Source: Eledone cirrhosa (lineage: Eukaryota). From it: a DNA stretch of 64,000 nt. The notes under the pieces are model-generated. The model did no database searches. It saw nothing but the letters and a program-made list of their open reading frames with translations, and was not told where the DNA came from. A program made the translations under genes and the position numbers. This document shows, piece after piece, positions 11,660 to 54,009 of this stretch (positions within the stretch are counted from its first letter, which is position 1; each line of letters starts with the position of its first letter). The stretch spans positions 10,540,001 through 10,604,000 of the forward strand of contig OZ024751.1 of NCBI GenBank assembly GCA_964016885.1. Reading direction: 5' to 3'.

Positions 11660-14600
11660 TGTTGTATTCAAGAGACCAGGTGGAGGGGTGTGTCTGCTAG
11701 ATTCATTGTGGGTATAAAACGATGCTATAAGCTTTTCTGGGTGGGAAATGACAATGGGCTGGGTGGAGTAGGAATCATGGTAGCAGAAAAGTGGGCAGAT
11801 AAGATAATAGACGTAAATAGAGTGAACGACAGAATAATTAAAATAAGACTTGTCCTCAATAGAACTACGGTGACAGTAATATCTGCGTACGCACCCCAAT
11901 CCAGACTGCCCGGCACTATAAAAGACAGATTCTATGAGACACTGATGCTCACTACCTCCCAAATAACCGACAGTGACTATATAATTATTGCAGGCGACCT
12001 AAATGGTCACGTTGGACAACATTGTGACGGCTACGACGAAATCCATGGAGGCTATGGGTTTGGTACTAGAAATGAGGAAGGCTCCAGAATCCTGGAATTC
12101 TGTGACGCAAATAACCTAACTATCTGTAACACTAACTTCAAAAAACGTGACAATCACCTGATCACCTATAGATCGGAGGAACACACAAGCCAGGTAGATT
12201 ATATCCTTACCAGAAGACGTGACAGAGTGTCTGTTGTAAACATTAAATCCCTCCCCCATGAAGAATGCACGTCTTAACATAGACTCATAATTAGCAACCT
12301 CATAGTCAGGACGAGACGTATTCAACAACAGAAGAGGACTATCCTCAGGAGAAAAATATGGAAATTAAAGGACCCCACAGCCAGTCATAAATTTAAAAGC
12401 ATATTACTTGATGCTTTTGATAGTAAGGAAGAGCAATTAGAGTCGTACAATATAGAGGAACAGTGGGAATTCCTGAAAGCAAACCTGCTGATGGCGGCAG
12501 ATGAAGTCTGTGACTGGAGCAGGCCTGTAGGCAGGAGGAGAGTAACATGGTGGTGGAACAGTAAGGTGAAGGGGTCAATTAAGGCCAAAAAGCAGGCTTG
12601 GAAAGTATGGCGGGATGGGGGAAGTAGAGAAGACTATCAAGTGGCCAAGAGGGAAGCTAGGAGAAAAGTGTACTTCGCAAGAAGGGAAGCAGAGGAAAGA
12701 AAGTTCAAGTATGTTCTACAACGCGAGGACCAAAAACGTGAGGTGTTCAGGATTGCTAGGCAATGTGTCAAGGAAAACCGTGATATTGTCGGGGAGAAGT
12801 GTGTACTTAATGATGACGGCGTACTTGCCATCACCGACGCTGATAAGAAGGTAGCTTGGAAGTGTCACTACGAAAGGCTACTAAATGAGGAGAATAAATG
12901 GGAGAAAGACAGTCTCCCCCACATAGACCCAATAGAGGGACCAGCAGTGTTAGTCGAGGGTAGTATAATAAGTAAGGCAATCAAAGATATGAAGACGGGT
13001 AAGGCGGCTGGGCCTTCAGAAATAGTTGCTGAGATGCTGAAGGCATCTGGTACGGTGGGACACACCATGGTCACCCGGATAGTTAACCAAGTCGTACAGA
13101 ATGGGGTTGTTCCGAAGGACTGGCATAGCAGCATCATCGTTAACTGTTATAAGGGAAAAGGAGATGCCCTAGATAGGAGTAACTATAGAGGCATTAAATT
13201 AATCGACCAGGTCATGAAGGTCACGGAAAAAGTAATAGCGCAACTAATCAGAGAGAGAATTGATCTAGATGAAATGCAGTTCAGGTTTGTGTCAGGGAAA
13301 AGTACCATAGACGCTCTTTTCATTGTACGACAACTACAGGAGAAGTACCTAGTTAAAAGTAAACCCCTATACTTAGTTTTTGTCGACTTGGAGAAAGCCT
13401 TCCACAGAGTCCCCCGTTCCCTTATCTGGTGGGCTCTTAGAAAACTAGGTGTTGACGAATGGCTTGTGAAAGCTATACAAGCCATGTATAAAGAAACAGT
13501 CAGCAAGGTTAGAATTAACAACGAATATAGTGAAGAGTTTAGCGTAAAACTTGGTGTCCAGCAGGGCTCTGTTCTTAGCCCCCTACTATTTATTATTGCC
13601 CTTCAGGCTATAACAGAGGAGTTCAAGACCGGCTGCCCATGGGAACTCCTATACGCAGATGACCTAACACTCATAGCTGAATCAATGGCCGAGCTAGAGA
13701 AAAAATTCCAAGCATGGAAGCACGACCTAGAATCAAAAGGCCTTAAAATTAACCTGGCTAAGACTAAAGTTCTAGTTTGTAAGAAAGAAAATAAGGCGGC
13801 GGTCCCTTCCGGGAAGTGGCCATGCTCAGTGTGTAGGAAAGGCATAGGTAGAAACTCCATTTTGTGTCCCAAATGCAAAGTATGGGTGCATAAAAGATGT
13901 AGTGGGATCACAGGTAAGCTAACTAAGAACATAGATTTTACATGTGGCCGGTGCTCTGGTGCAATAAGTAGCAGCAAGTGCCCACAAAATACTAGCTCTT
14001 TCAACTGCACAGAGGGTTCTATAGAAATAGTGGACAGCTTCCGTTACCTGGGTGACAAAATCAGCAGTGGGGGAGGATGCTCTGAAAGTACAGTAGCTAG
14101 AGTCAGAACTGGATGGAAAAAGTTCAGAGAGCTTATACTACTATTAGCTGCTAAAGGGTTCTCCCTAAAAATGAAAGGCAGGTTGTATGATGCCTGCATA
14201 CGAACAGCAATGTTGCATGGCAGTGAGACCTGGGCATTGTGTGCAGAGGATATACGCAGACTAGAGAGGAACGAAGCTTGCATGCTCCGCTGGATGTGTA
14301 ATAGTAATATACGTGAACGGCAAAGCATAAACGAACTAAGGAAAAAATTAGAAATAAGAGGGATCAGATGTTGTTTACTCGAGAGAAGGCTACATTGGTA
14401 TGGTCACGTGATGCGCATGAAAGACGATAGCTGTATAACAAAGTGCAGGGCAATAAAGATAGACGGTAGCCACGGAGTAGGTAGACCCAGAAAAACCTGG
14501 GACGAGCTGATAAATTCCGACCTCACACACTTACACCTCTCCAAGAGAATGTCACTGGACCGAGACCTTTGGCGGTACTCAGTAATAGAGAAGACCCGCC

Positions 14601-15118
14601 TTACCTAAATACAAAGTAAAACCTACTACAGTCAGTAGGCATCTCTAACAAAATACACCCCCGTCCCACCACCCCCACCCCACCCATCCACACCGCCCCT
14701 TTCAATGTAAAGTTATGTTGGTGCCACAACATCCAGGCCGAAACAAATGAGATCGTGTAGGTGTCACGACAAAAAAATCACACAGTCCACGCTGTAATGT
14801 GGCCGTGTAGGTAACATGGTAAAAACCTCCCAGCCCCACACTGTAAATGTAGTTGGTGTTAGGAAGGGCATCCAGCTGTAGAAAACCCGCCAGACAGTCC
14901 ACGCTGTAATGTGGCCGTGTAGTCAACACGGTAAAAACCTCCAAGCCTCACACTGTAAATGTGGTTGGTGTTAGGAAGGGCATCCAGCTGTAGAAAACCC
15001 GCCAGACAGTTCTATGCGAGCAAGACAATCACTCTTGCCTCAAGTGGGAAAACCCCCGTCCAAACCCATGCAAGCGGGGAACACGGACGTTAAACGTTGA
15101 TGATGATGATGATGATGA
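11660..15118 (+). mobile_element. Near full-length RTE-clade LINE (5'-truncated in the APE domain) with repetitive 3' UTR and (TGA)n tail
   Basis: APE motifs (IQETRW, SAYAPQ, GDLNGHVG, SQVDYIL), RT motifs (NYRGIKL, FVDLEKAF, QQGSVLSP, LLYADD, FRYLG), tail tgatgatgatga at 15097-15118. Confidence 0.97.
11663..14608 (+). pseudogene. RTE ORF (APE endonuclease + reverse transcriptase + PHD-like finger) interrupted by one in-frame stop
   Basis: ORFs 11690-12277 and 12491-14608 share a frame. The only interruption is TAA 12275-12277, at the usual Q of the APE 'QHR' motif. Confidence 0.9.
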
Positions 15119-17796: not shown

Positions 17797-20745
17797 AGTG
17801 CTGGTGCCATGACAAAATGTACCGAGTACACTCTGTAAAGTGGTAGTGCTGGTGCCATGACAAAATGCGCCCAGTACACCCTGTAAAGTAGTAGTGCTGG
17901 TGCCATGACAAAATGTACCGAGTACACTCTGTAAAGTGGTAGTGCTGGTGCCATGACAAAATGCGCCCAGTACACTCTGTAAAGTAGTAGTGCTGGTACC
18001 ATGACAAAATGTACCGAGTACACTCTGTAAAGTAGTAGTGCTGGTGCCATGATAAAATGTACCCAGTACACTCTGTAAAGTAGTAATGCTGGTACCATGA
18101 CAAAATGTACCCAGTACACTCTGTAAACTAGTAGTGCTGGTGCCATGATAAAATACACCCAGTGCACTCTGTAAAGTAGTAGTGCTGGTGTCATGATAAA
18201 ATACACCCAGTACATTCTGTAGAGTATTGCTCCTGGTGCCATGATAAAATACATCCAGACTACTCTGTAAAGTAGTAGTGCTGGTGCCATGACAAAATGC
18301 ACCCAGTACACTCTGTAAAGTAGTAGTGCTGGTGCCATGACAAAATGCACCCAGTACACTCTGTAAAGTAGTAGTGCTGGTGCCATGACAAAATGCACCC
18401 AGTACACTCTGTAAAGTAGTAGTGCTGGTACCATGACAAAATGCACCCAGTACACTCTGTAAAGTAGTAGTGCTGGTACCATGATAAAATGCACCCAGTA
18501 CACTCAGTAAAGTAGTAGTGCTGGTACCATGACAAAATGTATCCAGTACACTCTGTAAAGTAGTAGTGCTGGTGCCATGATAAAATGCACCCAGTACACT
18601 CTGTAAAGTAGTAGTGCTGGTACTATGACAAAATGCACCCTGTACACTCTGTAAAGTAGTAGTGCTGGTACCATGACAAAATGTACCCCGTACACTCTAT
18701 AAAGTAGTAGTGCTGGTACTATGACAAAATGCACCCAGTACCTTCTGTAATGTAGTAGTGCTGGTGCCATGATAAAATGCACCCAGTACACTCTGTAAAG
18801 TAGTAGTGCTGGTGCCATGATAAAATGCACCAGTACACTGCTACAAAGGTAAAGGTGATGCACTAGATAGAGGAAACTATAGAGGTATAAAGCTGATGGA
18901 CCAGGTCATGAAAGTAACAGAAAGAGTTATAGCACAGTTGATTAGGGACCGGGTGAAAATAGACGAGATGCAATTTGGGTTTGTACCAGGAAGAGGCACC
19001 ACTGATGCCCTCTTCCTTGTGAGGCAGTTACAGGAAAAGTTCCTAGCTAAAAGTAAGCCACTCTACTTGGCATTTGTCGACCTTGAGAAAGCCTTTGACA
19101 GAGTTCCACGTGCTGTAATCTGGTGGGCTCTTAGAAAACTAGGAGTAGATGAATGGCTTGTGAAAGCGATACAAGCCATGTATAGGGGAGCAGTCAGCAA
19201 AGTTAGGATTAGCAATGAGTATAGCGAGGAATTTAGCGTACAGGTTGGGGTCCACCAGGGCTCTGTTCTTAGCCCCCTCCTGTTCATCACAGTCCTGCAG
19301 GCAATAACGGAGGAGTTTAAGACCGGATGCCCATGGGAACTCCTGTATGCTGATGACCTCGCACTTATAGCTGAATCTATGGTAGAACTAGAGAATAAAT
19401 TCCAAACTTGGAAGCAGGGACTAGAAAGAAAGGGTCTCAAAGTCAACATGACAAAGACTAAGGTCCTTGTAAGTAGACGAGAAAACAGAACCCAGATCAC
19501 CTCAGGGAAATGGCCTTGCTCAGTATGTAGGAAAGGTGTAGGTAGGAACTCCATTCTCTGCCCCAAATGCAAACAATGGGTACACAAGAGATGTAACGGG
19601 ATCTCAGGAAGCTTAATTAAGAATGTAGGCTTCACATGCAGCAGCTGTGCTGGGACAGCAATCAGCAAACAGCCACAGGAAACAAGTACCACCAATCTCT
19701 GGGAGGGCTCTGTAGAAACAGTAGACAGCTTCTGCTACCTAGGTGACCGAATTAGCAGCGGAGGTGGGTGTTCAGAAAGTACAATAACTAGGGTAAGAAC
19801 GGGATGGAAGAAGTTTAGGGAACTACTACCACTGCTAGCTGCAAAAGGCTTCTCCCTCAGAATGAAAGACAGACTGTATGATGCGTGTATCCGAACAGCG
19901 ATGTTGCATGGTAGTGAGACCTGAGCGCTGAAGGTGGAAGACTTACGTAGATTAGAGAGAAACGAAGCCTGCATGCTCCGATGGATGTGTAACAGTAATA
20001 TACGTGAACGACAAAGCATAAATGAATTGAGAGAGAGACTGAGCATAAGAGGAATCAAATGCTGTGTGCAGGAGAGGCGGTTGCGCTGGTATGGACATGT
20101 GATGTGTATGAAGGATGACAGCTGCATAAAAAGGTGCAGAGCACTAGAAGTCGATGGAAACCGCGGAGTGGGGAGACCCATGATGACCTGGGATGAGGTG
20201 ATAAAAGCCGACCTTACCCAAAGGCAATGACACACGACCGTGACCTCTGGCGTCACACAGTAATGCAGAGTACCCGACCTCCCATGGGTACAAGCTGAAG
20301 CATATAGACAATATTCCCCCACATCCCCCACCGCAAGGTGGTCGTGGAGGTGCCACGGCAAAAAAGCACCCAGCCACACTGTAAAGTGGACGTGTAGGCA
20401 CCACGAAAAAGCACCCAGCACTCACTGTAAATGAGACCAGACACTGCCCACAACAGGACAACCCGTCTAACCCATGTTAGCATGGAAGAACGAACGTAAA
20501 ACGGTGATGATGATGATGATGACACTCTGTAAAGTAGTAGTGCTGGTACCATGACAAAATGTACCCAGTACACTCTGTAAAGTAGTAGTGCTGGTGCCAT
20601 GATAAAATGCACCCAGTATACTCTGTAAAGTAGTAGTGCTGGTGTCATGATAAAATGCACCTAGTACACTCTGTAAAGTAGCAGTGCTGGTACTATGATA
20701 AAATGCACTCAGTACACTCTATAAAGTATTAGTGCTGGTGCCATA
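17797..20745. repeat. 48-bp minisatellite (17797-18838 and 20522-20745) interrupted by an RTE insertion
   Basis: Unit gtagtagtgctggtgccatgacaaaatgcacccagtacactctgtaaa; 16-aa periodic ORFs. Confidence 0.95.
18837..20521 (+). mobile_element. 5'-truncated RTE LINE (RT + PHD-like finger + 3' UTR + (TGA)n tail)
   Basis: ORF 18896-19924 with LLYADD, nonsense codon at ETW, continuation 19934-20230. Confidence 0.95.
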
Positions 20746-39928: not shown

Positions 39929-39933
<5 letters not shown>

Positions 39934-40620
39934 GGAAAAAATGAAACGATATTTCATTTCCCACTCTTAGTACGGCTGTTACTTAAATATAAGTATGTAC
40001 ACGTACATACATATATGTATACCGACGTACAGTAGTATGTATATATATATATACATACATGCACACATATATATATGCACGTATGGATTCACCGAACATT
40101 TATTATAATGCTCGGTGTGTTTGTAAACAAACATCCCGTATTAAGCCGTAGTGTCTAGCAACCACCGTTGCTCGTTTGTTCAACACTGACAAAGGAACGC
40201 TGTACTAGTTTCAAGCTTGTTAGCTATCGTCAGCAACGTATACCTTCCTGCCAGATTGTTGAACGTATATACTTACCTTATGCATATTAACGGCTGAGTA
40301 GCCCAATTTGCATATCGAGTGGGTTAATCGGCCGGGTGCACCGAAAACGATAAACGGAAAAAAATGAAACGATATTTCATTTCCCACTCTTAGTACGGCT
40401 GTTACTTAAATATAAGTATGTACACGTACATACATATATGTATACCGACGTACAGTAGTATGTTTATATATATATATATACATACATGCACACATTCAGT
40501 GTTGAAAAAACGAGCAACGGTGGTTGCTAGACACTACGGCTTAATACGGGATGTTTGTTTACAAACACACCGAGCATTATAATAAATGTTCGGTGAATCC
40601 ATACGTGCATATATATATGT
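39929..40620 (-). mobile_element. Diverged 1.67-mer of the hammerhead (retrozyme-like) repeat, with a 5' inversion (40496-40620)
   Basis: Colinear homology to the reverse complement of the 466-bp unit; period about 422 bp; flanked by (TA)n. Confidence 0.85.
40196..40240 (-). ncRNA. Type I minimal hammerhead ribozyme
   Basis: - strand: acgttg-CTGACGA-t-agct(aaca)agct-t-GAAA-ctag-TA-cagcgt. Confidence 0.88.
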
Positions 40621-45662: not shown

Positions 45663-46025
45663 ATATATATATATAGTACATCGTTCCTGTGTCAGTGTTG
45701 AACAAAAAGGTGACGTGGTTGCCTTAACACCGTATGGCATAAATTCAGGCTGTTCAGTTTGTTTACAAACGAACAAAGCGACGTTAGCGCCGCTAAACTG
45801 ATACGTGCATATATGTATGTGTACCTGTATGCATATGTATGTATATGTGTATATATATATATATATGTGCATGCTACTGTACGTCTGTATACATATATGT
45901 ATGTACGTATACATGCATACTTACATTTAAGTAAGTGCCATACTAAGAGTGAGAAATGAAATTTCGTTTTCATTTTGTTTCAATTTATCGTTTTCGGTAT
46001 GCCTGACCGATTTAACTCACTCAAT

Positions 46026-46078
46026 ATGCAAATTAGGCTGCTCAGCCGTTAATTTTCATAAGGAAAGTATATACTTTC
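46026..46078 (+). promoter_or_regulatory. Candidate snRNA/U6-type promoter cassette (octamer, conserved spacer, TATA-like), repeated in each unit
   Basis: ATGCAAAT 46026-46033 and TATATA 46068-46073; both retained in the diverged copy (~40265-40312, -). Confidence 0.4.
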
Positions 46079-46106
46079 GAACGTTCAACTATCTGGCAGA
46101 TGGGTA

Positions 46107-46151
46107 AACGGTGCTGATGATAGCTAACAAGCTTGAAACTAGTACATCGTT
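46107..46151 (+). ncRNA. Type I minimal hammerhead ribozyme (first of 17; others at +466 steps, last at 53563-53607)
   Basis: aacggtg-CTGATGA-t-agct(aaca)agct-t-GAAA-ctag-TA/catcgtt; 7-bp stem I, palindromic stem III, GUA cleavage at 46144/46145. Confidence 0.92.
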
Positions 46152-49100
46152 CCTGTGTCAGTGTTGAACAAAAAGGTGACGTGGTTGCCTTAACACCGTA
46201 TGGCATAAATTCAGGCTGTTCAGTTTGTTTACAAACGAACAAAGCGACGTTAGCGCCGCTAAACTGATACGTGCATATATGTATGTGTACCTGTATGCAT
46301 ATGTATGTATATGTGTATATATATATATATATGTGCATGCTACTGTACGTCTGTATACATATATGTATGTACGTATACATGCATACTTACATTTAAGTAA
46401 GTGCCATACTAAGAGTGAGAAATGAAATTTCGTTTTCATTTTGTTTCAATTTATCGTTTTCGGTATGCCTGACCGATTTAACTCACTCAATATGCAAATT
46501 AGGCTGCTCAGCCGTTAATTTTCATAAGGAAAGTATATACTTTCGAACGTTCAACTATCTGGCAGATGGGTAAACGGTGCTGATGATAGCTAACAAGCTT
46601 GAAACTAGTACATCGTTCCTGTGTCAGTGTTGAACAAAAAGGTGACGTGGTTGCCTTAACACCGTATGGCATAAATTCAGGCTGTTCAGTTTGTTTACAA
46701 ACGAACAAAGCGACGTTAGCGCCGCTAAACTGATACGTGCATATATGTATGTGTACCTGTATGCATATGTATGTATATGTGTATATATATATATATATGT
46801 GCATGCTACTGTACGTCTGTATACATATATGTATGTACGTATACATGCATACTTACATTTAAGTAAGTGCCATACTAAGAGTGAGAAATGAAATTTCGTT
46901 TTCATTTTGTTTCAATTTATCGTTTTCGGTATGCCTGACCGATTTAACTCACTCAATATGCAAATTAGGCTGCTCAGCCGTTAATTTTCATAAGGAAAGT
47001 ATATACTTTCGAACGTTCAACTATCTGGCAGATGGGTAAACGGTGCTGATGATAGCTAACAAGCTTGAAACTAGTACATCGTTCCTGTGTCAGTGTTGAA
47101 CAAAAAGGTGACGTGGTTGCCTTAACACCGTATGGCATAAATTCAGGCTGTTCAGTTTGTTTACAAACGAACAAAGCGACGTTAGCGCCGCTAAACTGAT
47201 ACGTGCATATATGTATGTGTACCTGTATGCATATGTATGTATATGTGTATATATATATATATATGTGCATGCTACTGTACGTCTGTATACATATATGTAT
47301 GTACGTATACATGCATACTTACATTTAAGTAAGTGCCATACTAAGAGTGAGAAATGAAATTTCGTTTTCATTTTGTTTCAATTTATCGTTTTCGGTATGC
47401 CTGACCGATTTAACTCACTCAATATGCAAATTAGGCTGCTCAGCCGTTAATTTTCATAAGGAAAGTATATACTTTCGAACGTTCAACTATCTGGCAGATG
47501 GGTAAACGGTGCTGATGATAGCTAACAAGCTTGAAACTAGTACATCGTTCCTGTGTCAGTGTTGAACAAAAAGGTGACGTGGTTGCCTTAACACCGTATG
47601 GCATAAATTCAGGCTGTTCAGTTTGTTTACAAACGAACAAAGCGACGTTAGCGCCGCTAAACTGATACGTGCATATATGTATGTGTACCTGTATGCATAT
47701 GTATGTATATGTGTATATATATATATATATGTGCATGCTACTGTACGTCTGTATACATATATGTATGTACGTATACATGCATACTTACATTTAAGTAAGT
47801 GCCATACTAAGAGTGAGAAATGAAATTTCGTTTTCATTTTGTTTCAATTTATCGTTTTCGGTATGCCTGACCGATTTAACTCACTCAATATGCAAATTAG
47901 GCTGCTCAGCCGTTAATTTTCATAAGGAAAGTATATACTTTCGAACGTTCAACTATCTGGCAGATGGGTAAACGGTGCTGATGATAGCTAACAAGCTTGA
48001 AACTAGTACATCGTTCCTGTGTCAGTGTTGAACAAAAAGGTGACGTGGTTGCCTTAACACCGTATGGCATAAATTCAGGCTGTTCAGTTTGTTTACAAAC
48101 GAACAAAGCGACGTTAGCGCCGCTAAACTGATACGTGCATATATGTATGTGTACCTGTATGCATATGTATGTATATGTGTATATATATATATATATGTGC
48201 ATGCTACTGTACGTCTGTATACATATATGTATGTACGTATACATGCATACTTACATTTAAGTAAGTGCCATACTAAGAGTGAGAAATGAAATTTCGTTTT
48301 CATTTTGTTTCAATTTATCGTTTTCGGTATGCCTGACCGATTTAACTCACTCAATATGCAAATTAGGCTGCTCAGCCGTTAATTTTCATAAGGAAAGTAT
48401 ATACTTTCGAACGTTCAACTATCTGGCAGATGGGTAAACGGTGCTGATGATAGCTAACAAGCTTGAAACTAGTACATCGTTCCTGTGTCAGTGTTGAACA
48501 AAAAGGTGACGTGGTTGCCTTAACACCGTATGGCATAAATTCAGGCTGTTCAGTTTGTTTACAAACGAACAAAGCGACGTTAGCGCCGCTAAACTGATAC
48601 GTGCATATATGTATGTGTACCTGTATGCATATGTATGTATATGTGTATATATATATATATATGTGCATGCTACTGTACGTCTGTATACATATATGTATGT
48701 ACGTATACATGCATACTTACATTTAAGTAAGTGCCATACTAAGAGTGAGAAATGAAATTTCGTTTTCATTTTGTTTCAATTTATCGTTTTCGGTATGCCT
48801 GACCGATTTAACTCACTCAATATGCAAATTAGGCTGCTCAGCCGTTAATTTTCATAAGGAAAGTATATACTTTCGAACGTTCAACTATCTGGCAGATGGG
48901 TAAACGGTGCTGATGATAGCTAACAAGCTTGAAACTAGTACATCGTTCCTGTGTCAGTGTTGAACAAAAAGGTGACGTGGTTGCCTTAACACCGTATGGC
49001 ATAAATTCAGGCTGTTCAGTTTGTTTACAAACGAACAAAGCGACGTTAGCGCCGCTAAACTGATACGTGCATATATGTATGTGTACCTGTATGCATATGT

Positions 49101-52100
49101 ATGTATATGTGTATATATATATATATATGTGCATGCTACTGTACGTCTGTATACATATATGTATGTACGTATACATGCATACTTACATTTAAGTAAGTGC
49201 CATACTAAGAGTGAGAAATGAAATTTCGTTTTCATTTTGTTTCAATTTATCGTTTTCGGTATGCCTGACCGATTTAACTCACTCAATATGCAAATTAGGC
49301 TGCTCAGCCGTTAATTTTCATAAGGAAAGTATATACTTTCGAACGTTCAACTATCTGGCAGATGGGTAAACGGTGCTGATGATAGCTAACAAGCTTGAAA
49401 CTAGTACATCGTTCCTGTGTCAGTGTTGAACAAAAAGGTGACGTGGTTGCCTTAACACCGTATGGCATAAATTCAGGCTGTTCAGTTTGTTTACAAACGA
49501 ACAAAGCGACGTTAGCGCCGCTAAACTGATACGTGCATATATGTATGTGTACCTGTATGCATATGTATGTATATGTGTATATATATATATATATGTGCAT
49601 GCTACTGTACGTCTGTATACATATATGTATGTACGTATACATGCATACTTACATTTAAGTAAGTGCCATACTAAGAGTGAGAAATGAAATTTCGTTTTCA
49701 TTTTGTTTCAATTTATCGTTTTCGGTATGCCTGACCGATTTAACTCACTCAATATGCAAATTAGGCTGCTCAGCCGTTAATTTTCATAAGGAAAGTATAT
49801 ACTTTCGAACGTTCAACTATCTGGCAGATGGGTAAACGGTGCTGATGATAGCTAACAAGCTTGAAACTAGTACATCGTTCCTGTGTCAGTGTTGAACAAA
49901 AAGGTGACGTGGTTGCCTTAACACCGTATGGCATAAATTCAGGCTGTTCAGTTTGTTTACAAACGAACAAAGCGACGTTAGCGCCGCTAAACTGATACGT
50001 GCATATATGTATGTGTACCTGTATGCATATGTATGTATATGTGTATATATATATATATATGTGCATGCTACTGTACGTCTGTATACATATATGTATGTAC
50101 GTATACATGCATACTTACATTTAAGTAAGTGCCATACTAAGAGTGAGAAATGAAATTTCGTTTTCATTTTGTTTCAATTTATCGTTTTCGGTATGCCTGA
50201 CCGATTTAACTCACTCAATATGCAAATTAGGCTGCTCAGCCGTTAATTTTCATAAGGAAAGTATATACTTTCGAACGTTCAACTATCTGGCAGATGGGTA
50301 AACGGTGCTGATGATAGCTAACAAGCTTGAAACTAGTACATCGTTCCTGTGTCAGTGTTGAACAAAAAGGTGACGTGGTTGCCTTAACACCGTATGGCAT
50401 AAATTCAGGCTGTTCAGTTTGTTTACAAACGAACAAAGCGACGTTAGCGCCGCTAAACTGATACGTGCATATATGTATGTGTACCTGTATGCATATGTAT
50501 GTATATGTGTATATATATATATATATGTGCATGCTACTGTACGTCTGTATACATATATGTATGTACGTATACATGCATACTTACATTTAAGTAAGTGCCA
50601 TACTAAGAGTGAGAAATGAAATTTCGTTTTCATTTTGTTTCAATTTATCGTTTTCGGTATGCCTGACCGATTTAACTCACTCAATATGCAAATTAGGCTG
50701 CTCAGCCGTTAATTTTCATAAGGAAAGTATATACTTTCGAACGTTCAACTATCTGGCAGATGGGTAAACGGTGCTGATGATAGCTAACAAGCTTGAAACT
50801 AGTACATCGTTCCTGTGTCAGTGTTGAACAAAAAGGTGACGTGGTTGCCTTAACACCGTATGGCATAAATTCAGGCTGTTCAGTTTGTTTACAAACGAAC
50901 AAAGCGACGTTAGCGCCGCTAAACTGATACGTGCATATATGTATGTGTACCTGTATGCATATGTATGTATATGTGTATATATATATATATATGTGCATGC
51001 TACTGTACGTCTGTATACATATATGTATGTACGTATACATGCATACTTACATTTAAGTAAGTGCCATACTAAGAGTGAGAAATGAAATTTCGTTTTCATT
51101 TTGTTTCAATTTATCGTTTTCGGTATGCCTGACCGATTTAACTCACTCAATATGCAAATTAGGCTGCTCAGCCGTTAATTTTCATAAGGAAAGTATATAC
51201 TTTCGAACGTTCAACTATCTGGCAGATGGGTAAACGGTGCTGATGATAGCTAACAAGCTTGAAACTAGTACATCGTTCCTGTGTCAGTGTTGAACAAAAA
51301 GGTGACGTGGTTGCCTTAACACCGTATGGCATAAATTCAGGCTGTTCAGTTTGTTTACAAACGAACAAAGCGACGTTAGCGCCGCTAAACTGATACGTGC
51401 ATATATGTATGTGTACCTGTATGCATATGTATGTATATGTGTATATATATATATATATGTGCATGCTACTGTACGTCTGTATACATATATGTATGTACGT
51501 ATACATGCATACTTACATTTAAGTAAGTGCCATACTAAGAGTGAGAAATGAAATTTCGTTTTCATTTTGTTTCAATTTATCGTTTTCGGTATGCCTGACC
51601 GATTTAACTCACTCAATATGCAAATTAGGCTGCTCAGCCGTTAATTTTCATAAGGAAAGTATATACTTTCGAACGTTCAACTATCTGGCAGATGGGTAAA
51701 CGGTGCTGATGATAGCTAACAAGCTTGAAACTAGTACATCGTTCCTGTGTCAGTGTTGAACAAAAAGGTGACGTGGTTGCCTTAACACCGTATGGCATAA
51801 ATTCAGGCTGTTCAGTTTGTTTACAAACGAACAAAGCGACGTTAGCGCCGCTAAACTGATACGTGCATATATGTATGTGTACCTGTATGCATATGTATGT
51901 ATATGTGTATATATATATATATATGTGCATGCTACTGTACGTCTGTATACATATATGTATGTACGTATACATGCATACTTACATTTAAGTAAGTGCCATA
52001 CTAAGAGTGAGAAATGAAATTTCGTTTTCATTTTGTTTCAATTTATCGTTTTCGGTATGCCTGACCGATTTAACTCACTCAATATGCAAATTAGGCTGCT

Positions 52101-53904
52101 CAGCCGTTAATTTTCATAAGGAAAGTATATACTTTCGAACGTTCAACTATCTGGCAGATGGGTAAACGGTGCTGATGATAGCTAACAAGCTTGAAACTAG
52201 TACATCGTTCCTGTGTCAGTGTTGAACAAAAAGGTGACGTGGTTGCCTTAACACCGTATGGCATAAATTCAGGCTGTTCAGTTTGTTTACAAACGAACAA
52301 AGCGACGTTAGCGCCGCTAAACTGATACGTGCATATATGTATGTGTACCTGTAGGCATATGTATGTATATGTGTATATATATATATATATGTGCATGCTA
52401 CTGTACGTCTGTATACATATATGTATGTACGTATACATGCATACTTACATTTAAGTAAGTGCCATACTAAGAGTGAGAAATGAAATTTCGTTTTCATTTT
52501 GTTTCAATTTATCGTTTTCGGTATGCCTGACCGATTTAACTCACTCAATATGCAAATTAGGCTGCTCAGCCGTTAATTTTCATAAGGAAAGTATATACTT
52601 TCGAACGTTCAACTATCTGGCAGATGGGTAAACGGTGCTGATGATAGCTAACAAGCTTGAAACTAGTACATCGTTCCTGTGTCAGTGTTGAACAAAAAGG
52701 TGACGTGGTTGCCTTAACACCGTATGGCATAAATTCAGGCTGTTCAGTTTGTTTACAAACGAACAAAGCGACGTTAGCGCCGCTAAACTGATACGTGCAT
52801 ATATGTATGTGTACCTGTATGCATATGTATGTATATGTGTATATATATATATATATGTGCATGCTACTGTACGTCTGTATACATATATGTATGTACGTAT
52901 ACATGCATACTTACATTTAAGTAAGTGCCATACTAAGAGTGAGAAATGAAATTTCGTTTTCATTTTGTTTCAATTTATCGTTTTCGGTATGCCTGACCGA
53001 TTTAACTCACTCAATATGCAAATTAGGCTGCTCAGCCGTTAATTTTCATAAGGAAAGTATATACTTTCGAACGTTCAACTATCTGGCAGATGGGTAAACG
53101 GTGCTGATGATAGCTAACAAGCTTGAAACTAGTACATCGTTCCTGTGTCAGTGTTGAACAAAAAGGTGACGTGGTTGCCTTAACACCGTATGGCATAAAT
53201 TCAGGCTGTTCAGTTTGTTTACAAACGAACAAAGCGACGTTAGCGCCGCTAAACTGATACGTGCATATATGTATGTGTACCTGTATGCATATGTATGTAT
53301 ATGTGTATATATATATATATATGTGCATGCTACTGTACGTCTGTATACATATATGTATGTACGTATACATGCATACTTACATTTAAGTAAGTGCCATACT
53401 AAGAGTGAGAAATGAAATTTCGTTTTCATTTTGTTTCAATTTATCGTTTTCGGTATGCCTGACCGATTTAACTCACTCAATATGCAAATTAGGCTGCTCA
53501 GCCGTTAATTTTCATAAGGAAAGTATATACTTTCGAACGTTCAACTATCTGGCAGATGGGTAAACGGTGCTGATGATAGCTAACAAGCTTGAAACTAGTA
53601 CATCGTTCCTGTGTCAGTGTTGAACAAAAAGGTGACGTGGTTGCCTTAACACCGTATGGCATAAATTCAGGCTGTTCAGTTTGTTTACAAACGAACAAAG
53701 CGACGTTAGCGCCGCTAAACTGATACGTGCATATATGTATGTGTACCTGTATGCATATGTATGTATATGTGTATATATATATATATATGTGCATGCTACT
53801 GTACGTCTGTATACATATATGTATGTACGTATACATGCATACTTACATTTAAGTAAGTGCCATACTAAGAGTGAGAAATGAAATTTCGTTTTCATTTTGT
53901 TTCA

Positions 53905-54009
<105 letters not shown>

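Follow-up and report, generated by a model that had tools for sequence, protein, structure and literature searches.

Non-LTR retrozymes, their circular RNAs and a proposed mobilisation by Penelope-type enzymes have been described by Cervera and de la Pena (2020, PMC7229834), and a link between retrozymes and Penelope terminal repeats was drawn by Li, Clavereau and Pollet (2026, bioRxiv 10.64898/2026.07.22.740005) in a survey of 35 genomes in which no mollusc is named in the portions of the text considered here. Only one of nine predicted retrozymes was reported to cleave in that preprint. Within the sections considered, the movement of animal hammerhead repeats was left open in 2020, with a circle and an unnamed LINE or Penelope enzyme as its components, and the 2026 study approached it only through co-occurrence and trees of terminal repeats. 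Penelope-like elements are themselves known for partial tandems, an inverted 5' copy, a one-sided tail and microsatellite targets (Craig et al. 2021, PMC8557442). The purified Penelope-like protein of an anole cuts and extends both target strands, and two internal RNA starts delimit the tail (Frangieh et al. 2024, PMC11167929). For hammerheads with a palindromic stem III, a dimer model has been put forward (PMC4209133). With regard to transcription, newt satellite 2 contains an snRNA-type promoter used by Pol II and the schistosome satellite a Pol III promoter (both as cited in PMC2220036). A search of the literature, conducted largely among papers outside subscription, yielded no cephalopod retrozyme, no retrozyme with tail-and-inversion ends and no retrozyme with a U6-type promoter.

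Described here is a hammerhead-bearing repeat family encountered in a 64,000-nucleotide stretch of Eledone cirrhosa DNA (GCA_964016885.1, contig OZ024751.1, positions 10,540,001 to 10,604,000), hereafter referred to as the window. The repeats are arranged in tandem with one type I hammerhead per unit and at least two consecutive units, and the family is a metazoan non-LTR retrozyme.

Results

Structure of the locus

The retrozyme copy occupies positions 39928 to 40620 of the window with the element on the minus strand, and its period of 422 nt (40350 versus 39928) agrees with the value of about 422 given in an earlier sequence-only reading of this DNA. Unit positions are counted from the cleavage site in the 422-nt unit, with the reference unit taken from locus L038. 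Proceeding along the minus strand from the 3' end, there are a (TA)n tract, a body, the hammerhead, a TATA-like box, an octamer-like element, a partial second body, an inverted arm and a (TG)n flank. The (TA)n target microsatellite lies at 39890-39930, and its junction with the element is ambiguous over 39928-39930. The downstream body (39928-40202, minus strand) covers unit positions 1-275, from the cleavage site to what is termed here the long 3' end, and is 100% identical to the reference unit. Its 56-nt "tail" (39928-39983, minus strand), delineated by the short end at unit position 219 and the long end at 275, contains a hairpin and a T6 run (39941-39936). The type I hammerhead motif with its extended stem I is positioned at 40186-40254 (minus strand), with the core at 40233-40203 and the predicted cleavage at 40203/40202 (GUA). 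Beyond it on the same strand are a TATA box-like TATATA (40266-40271) and the upstream element TATGCAAATTGGGC (40301-40314), which matches the -77 element of the U6, U6atac and RNase MRP genes of the same genome; the TATATA sequence is situated 42 nt past the start of this element. A T4 run (40344-40347, minus strand), which is a candidate Pol III terminator, lies within a CGTTTTCGG block that is kept in five of five reference units and is located just beyond the long-end site.

The upstream partial body (40350-40495, minus strand) extends from about unit position 135 to 275 and continues into the promoter. The inverted arm (40496-40620, plus strand) spans unit positions 14-138, and thus it comes to 13 nt from the cleavage site; it is identical to the sense copy at 124 of 125 positions, and the earlier description of the 5' 125 bp or so as inverted was correct. 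Its outer junction falls in about 15 nt of microhomology with the (TA)n(TG)n flank (to 40633). The direct part of the locus amounts to 1.35 units, or about 1.62 when the inverted arm is included. This arm is atypical, for it terminates within the internal microsatellite instead of reaching the usual short end; it may have been primed there, or its outer part may have been lost later through a deletion between TA tracts. The locus, with its long end and inversion present and its short end missing, is an ordinary, slightly atypical member of the family. No frame of 300 codons or more appears in the open-frame listing for the locus or for the array described below, the unit has no ORF, and its anatomy reveals no LTR features.

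Other repeats and frames are found in the window. Just to the left of the locus, at 38811-39791, are 225-nt inverted arms that are 99% complementary and 531 nt apart; the region resembles a young MITE or non-autonomous DNA transposon. A 6.8-kb (CAC/CAG)n array with an extreme strand skew is located at 29345-36111. Open frames are present at 12278-14605 and 18824-19921 (plus strand) and 63154-61904 (minus strand), and by eye the two with a YADD motif look like LINE-like reverse transcriptases and the third like a DNA transposase.

The sister array and the family

The sister array (45674-53910, plus strand) consists of 17.7 units of 466 nt in a single arm with the long 3' end placed into (TA)n. 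It holds 17 ribozymes, as opposed to the single one at 39928-40620, and the two loci align with 78% identity over 609 columns. The sequence-only reading took the array to be an amplified or rolling-circle version of the inserted RNA. It is not an amplified version of the smaller copy: the array belongs to a 466-nt subfamily and the locus to a young 422-nt subfamily. The 16 full units obtained by cutting between ribozymes represent only two distinct sequences. Such near-perfect homogeneity over 8 kb is compatible with a rolling circle or with local expansion, and smoothing during assembly may have contributed.

Pattern matching of the 3.0-Gb genome gave 13,460 matches to the exact 31-nt core (control 0), 28,412 to the core with stem II left free (control 2) and 20,098 to a 29-nt promoter pattern (control 0). 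Monomers range from 420 to 540 nt and fall into several subfamilies. Numbers of units per locus come from samples. These, like the other samples used here, were taken mostly from the first places listed on contig C1 and do not represent a random draw. Arrays also change after insertion, as indicated by locus L068, where a variant occurs in six of seven units of one arm and is absent from the other, and by duplicated blocks in L172 and L039. Rare variants common to all units of both arms were observed in four of 21 multi-unit loci, most young loci having no informative variant; this sharing counts in favour of the circular-template reading given below. One of four contig sets from sequencing runs was rich in unit variants and was uninformative on transcript ends.

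The hammerhead motif

The hammerhead at the locus displays the core CUGACGA (40233-40227), a stem II of AGCU/AACA/AGCU with U.U at its base, and GAAA. Its description here follows the standard hammerhead numbering and the NUH cleavage rule. Stem III is the palindrome ACUAGU, and the cleavage triplet is GUA at 40203|40202. Given this palindromic stem III, the hammerhead is predicted to be active as a dimer. Rfam at gathering thresholds returned no matches in the window, and the ribozyme assignment therefore rests on motif and fold; self-cleavage is predicted from the motif and its conservation. The monomer is highly self-paired (-148 kcal/mol, z -8.4, 0 of 100 shuffles), due in part to internal TA-rich palindromes.

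The 31-nt core differs from that of the array at N7 only, just as had been noted, and the exchange of a stem I pair (gttg/cagc in the locus versus ggtg/catc in the array) is real. The accompanying claim of covariation support fared less well: the swap is one inherited event at one pair, and two-sided changes are no more numerous than in shuffles. Among 53 distinct ribozymes, this pair is G-U in 24, U-G in 17, A-U in eight, C-G in one and unpaired in three, and U-U states also occur at it. A second, distal pair is A-U in 24, U-G in nine, C-G in one and unpaired in 19. Overall, pairing is 95.1% versus 30-46% when slid. Pairs changed on both sides number two as compared with 2.7 in the shuffles (500 of 500 shuffles reach two), and the covariation score of 0.136 versus 0.096 is inflated by the relatedness of the sequences. 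With the swap reflecting one or two inherited events, the covariation is weak, though consistent with the fold.

None of the 26 sites in the core and stem II, as against 124 of 353 other sites, has a variant common to at least four loci (P=4e-5), a comparison that is partly circular because the loci were found by their cores; private variants are about equally frequent at all sites. The promoter element and TATA box, which played no part in finding the loci, carry inherited variants at one of 14 and 0 of six sites, respectively, as compared with about 40% of body sites. A second set, of 106 contexts ascertained by the promoter with overlapping loci not fully merged, contains 81 perfect cores, 12 with one change and six with three to six changes; in the other seven contexts no core lies within reach. 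By the inherited-variant counts and by this second set, the excess conservation of the ribozyme over the rest of the unit that the sequence-only reading had looked for is present, and likewise that of the promoter; both motifs are kept across subfamilies. In an older subfamily (L245, L246 and L269), the base of stem II is C.A or C-G and the cleavage triplet is GUU or CUU; the changes in these three loci are found at the stem II base and at position 17 (GUU), and none at the catalytic bases.

A probable U6-type promoter

Three distinct U6 loci, the best U6atac locus and the RNase MRP gene of this genome share TATG(C/G)(A/T)AAT(T/G)AG at -76 to -78 and TATA at -30, whereas five U1 and three U2 loci carry a different element. 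Additional matches, 14 to U6 and five to U6atac, lack the U6-type element, as do two U6 array copies; all of these are probably pseudogenes. As a general observation, the Pol III small-RNA genes here (L071-L073, L185 and L191) have an octamer-like element at -77, whereas the Pol II snRNA genes (L192-L199, L133-L135 and L214) have a TCAGT-type element near -57.

A matrix built from the five genes scores held-out genes at 13.1-20.1 bits and the five reference units at 16.4-20.4 bits, with 0 of 700 background windows reaching 16.4 (maximum 16.2). The unit thus carries the host upstream element and the TATA box of a type 3 Pol III promoter, and the promoter mentioned in the sequence-only reading is, by host-gene match and matrix score, a real promoter-like element. 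It is likely, judging from these matches, that each unit contains a U6-type Pol III promoter from which the family is transcribed. Some features speak against such a function: the spacing from element to TATA is 42 nt in the unit and 46-48 nt in the five host genes, the 422-nt subfamily lacks 8 nt after the TATA, and a monomer transcript would require read-through of T4 to T6 runs, on which Pol III terminates.

Fixed 3' ends and (TA)n targets

Both the locus and the array stop at TTTAT|(AT)n, as had been recognised previously. The survey of such ends comprised 88 loci and 160 arms, all but three of the loci ascertained by the ribozyme, after removal of microsatellite-only matches and two duplicate arms. 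Long-site ends number 68, of which 48 fall exactly at 275, short-site ends number 64, of which 50 fall exactly at 219, and 28 ends lie elsewhere, such that two fixed ends 56 nt apart account for 132 of the 160 arms. A (TA)4 sequence follows within 22 nt after 63 of the long, 56 of the short and eight of the other ends. The 49 head-to-head pairs, two of which are segmental duplicates in L039, are composed of 31 long with short, 12 with one end elsewhere, three short with short, three with both ends elsewhere and none long with long. Genome-wide, exact junction patterns numbered 3,935 for the long and 1,359 for the short site (controls 0), although the two patterns differ in length and their ratio is therefore not an inversion frequency. 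Target-site duplications are unreadable inside (TA)n.

No pile-up of 5' ends at +1 was seen in the ribozyme-ascertained sample, in which arms lacking a core are invisible, and for that reason a sample ascertained by the long end was drawn. In this sample (85 arms examined, three of them unmapped), 40 of 82 mapped arms have an inverted partner. Arm lengths are continuous, ranging from 30 nt to 17.7 units.

These data bear on several proposals of the sequence-only reading. The shared 3' terminus is borne out by 68 of 160 arms, 48 of them at the exact base, inversions are frequent (the 40 of 82 long-end insertions above), and insertion by target-primed reverse transcription, into (TA)n, is supported. 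The notion of a "1.67-mer" as a single defined RNA does not agree with the continuous arm lengths or with the finding that only one of five arms at risk stops at 685-710 nt. Nor does the 3' end appear to be the end of the RNA itself, since another fixed end lies 56 nt farther upstream and, in the 422-nt subfamily, the long end is preceded by a T6 run, an arrangement that fits internal starts of reverse transcription as in Penelope-like elements. Twin priming is a mechanism by which L1 inversions arise. As a general rule for the present family it was rejected, inasmuch as the 5' starts of the two paired arms are unrelated.

Arm lengths and the template

For the analysis of templates, 79 of the 82 long arms were employed (two segmental duplicates and one doubtful arm were dropped, and three lengths were recoded by eye), together with 31 of the 40 inverted partners, namely the short arms ending at or near the short site. 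Eight long arms stop between -10 and +12 of the cleavage site versus 2.4 expected (P=0.003), and two short arms versus 2.1 expected. Of the passes over the cleavage site, 42 of 50 in long arms and 30 of 32 in short arms read through it. On the basis of the excess of stops, a minority of the templates look linear and cleaved, and most would be ligated or uncleaved.

A circle predicts trouble after one turn (422 nt), where the enzyme meets its own start, whereas a linear 1.65-mer predicts a pile-up at 697 nt. The rate of long-arm stops, 1.5 per 1000 nt over the first 400 nt, climbs to 5.7 per 1000 nt between 401 and 697 nt (P=1e-5), although these windows were chosen after the data had been seen, the ends are BLAST ends, and the effect is weaker in the short arms (P=0.07). 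Stops were recorded for two of 36 long arms at 290-400 nt, 10 of 34 at 401-444 nt and one of five at 685-710 nt. The rise near one full turn leads us to lean, post hoc and with small numbers, toward a circle over a linear 1.65-mer. Note that the one-turn stop region coincides with the hairpin and T-tract.

Penelope-like elements in the same genome

At least 150 GIY-YIG matches are present in the genome. The examples that were fetched encode a reverse transcriptase with a C-terminal GIY-YIG domain, and in most of them the linker is that of Neptune/Nematis, CX2-5CxxC. Several frames of 796 codons, 94-98% identical, occur in one family. Hammerhead-like motifs are present in the terminal repeats of these elements. 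In four to five families, insertions into (TA)n have two alternative ends that lie about 30-70 nt from each other, and where both arms were seen the long end is on one arm and the short end on the other; a fifth well-sampled family has essentially one end. In one Penelope-like family, represented by L113 (G000:C1:145868000-145877900) and related loci, there are a 938-codon frame and direct terminal repeats. Its hammerhead core is UUGANAA, as it is in two to three other families, which we take to be the U3-A8 version of the C3-G8 pair.

A partner search covering about seven families, drawn from 150 GIY-YIG matches and one family-specific search, compared the unit with 44 Penelope-like downstream regions, and no score rose above shuffles except for an inserted copy in L107. 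Matches to the unit in sets of 50 and 38 Penelope-like loci likewise proved to be inserted retrozyme copies rather than terminal-repeat homology, and a TTTCG..TTTCAT word that appeared by eye to be common to the unit and the Penelope-like repeats did not beat shuffles. Retrozyme copies lie in or beside three of the 50 and four of the 38 loci (L107, L123, L124, L278, L298, L299 and L300), which probably reflects common TA targets. Judging from its ends and targets, the retrozyme family would appear to work like a Penelope-dependent element, with terminal-repeat homology not found in the families sampled.

Discussion

Taken together, the observations make it probable that the family is transcribed by Pol III from its U6-type promoter, cleaved as a hammerhead dimer, probably circularised, and copied into (TA)n from two internal sites by a Penelope-like, Neptune-type enzyme. 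Transcription would begin at the promoter inside the unit, and the RNA would cleave itself as a hammerhead dimer to give unit-length molecules that are probably ligated to a circle. The enzyme would then copy this RNA into (TA)n breaks from two fixed internal starts, each end of the cut target priming one cDNA, one from the long and the other from the short site, and the two 5'-truncated cDNAs would then be fused in head-to-head orientation. A new source copy would arise only when the cDNA takes in the ribozyme and also the promoter, which is situated upstream of the predicted start; from the long site this requires a length of more than about 390 nt, and it is for this reason that body-promoter-body copies such as 39928-40620 matter. 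More tentatively, we entertain a stronger version: the template would be an RNA circle that encodes no protein and bears its own U6-type Pol III promoter, and a Penelope-like enzyme would copy this one circle from two fixed starts, one per end of a TA break, and stall after a full turn. If true, rolling-circle retrotransposition in an animal has left a fossil record that can be read from this genome, which also holds intact candidates for the enzyme.

Penelope-type insertion could also proceed from linear read-through templates, mostly of one to two units and partly cleaved, the arrays growing later by local duplication. Long arms exceed 697 nt in only four of 82 cases, stops at unit positions 114-13 fall in 11 of 16 cases on the second traverse versus nine of 51 on the first, stops are in excess at the cleavage site, duplication after insertion is visible, and the anole element uses uncleaved RNA as its main substrate in vitro, according to the part of PMC11167929 considered. 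All of this would be accommodated by linear templates, which we nevertheless judge rather unlikely, given that no pile-up occurs at the predicted 5' end (one of five arms at risk at 685-710 nt), that the stop rate is already elevated at about 400 nt, from 1.5 to 5.7 per 1000 nt, and that arrays of six to 18 near-identical units would demand many terminator read-throughs or fast local expansion.

Mobilisation by a non-Penelope LINE, with 3'-end priming and twin-priming inversions, would attribute the resemblance to Penelope to common TA targets. The locus at 39928-40620, viewed alone, does fit twin priming, with the inverted outer end (about unit 139-151) meeting the direct start (about 135), LINE-like reverse transcriptase frames are present in the window, and no Penelope partner was matched among the families sampled. 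In most pairs, however, the two arms overlap or are unrelated in phase, the inverted arm has a fixed end of its own, unlike in twin priming, and the same two-end layout is displayed by autonomous Penelope-like families of this genome, which renders a LINE improbable. The homogeneity of the 8-kb array might instead suggest a DNA satellite with a vestigial ribozyme, its spread being due to recombination or to circles of extrachromosomal DNA. A satellite does not sit well with copies that are scattered, have fixed 3' ends and are truncated at random 5' positions, the fixed ends already making it unlikely, and inherited variation avoids the catalytic core and promoter whereas private mutations do not; we regard it as very improbable.

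The insertions described here themselves bear the tail and inversion typical of Penelope, identify two start sites, and offer arm length as a way of testing whether templates were circular or linear. Which polymerase to test follows from the promoter match, and reconstitution is feasible with the young autonomous families, whose frames are long and intact.

In comparison with the metazoan non-LTR retrozymes, as portrayed in the portions of the literature considered, the family is similar in its non-coding tandem units, each with a type I hammerhead, its thousands of copies and its highly self-paired monomer. It likewise coexists with Penelope-like elements, and for those retrozymes a circular RNA template and mobilisation by Penelope have been proposed. 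The U.U at the base of stem II has a counterpart in axolotl HHR_Amex2. Its units, at 420-540 nt, reach or exceed the top of the 150-450 range given for those retrozymes. The published retrozyme text considered is silent on several traits of the present family, namely the two fixed 3' ends, the arms joined head to head, the insertion into (TA)n and the probable U6-type promoter. The Xenopus retrozymes differ in their homology to Penelope terminal repeats, as reported in the 2026 preprint; none was found here. Like the hammerhead repeats of newt satellite 2 and the schistosome satellite, in the accounts considered, the unit has its own small-RNA-type promoter. The newt repeat is cited as employing a Pol II snRNA promoter, whereas the match here is to U6, U6atac and MRP, not to U1 or U2. 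The Pol III promoter of the schistosome satellite is tRNA-like. The anole element starts without homology; here, 2-5 nt of microhomology to the (TA)n target are present at each of the two start sites. As compared with the Neptune/Nematis-type Penelope-like elements, in the sections of those papers considered, the unit lacks an ORF and its tail is 56-59 nt in length rather than 30-40 nt. It shares with them the partial tandems, 5' truncation, inverted 5' copy, one-sided tail and microsatellite targets, as well as a hammerhead with a palindromic stem III (Cervera and de la Pena 2014, PMC4209133) and two internal starts of reverse transcription.
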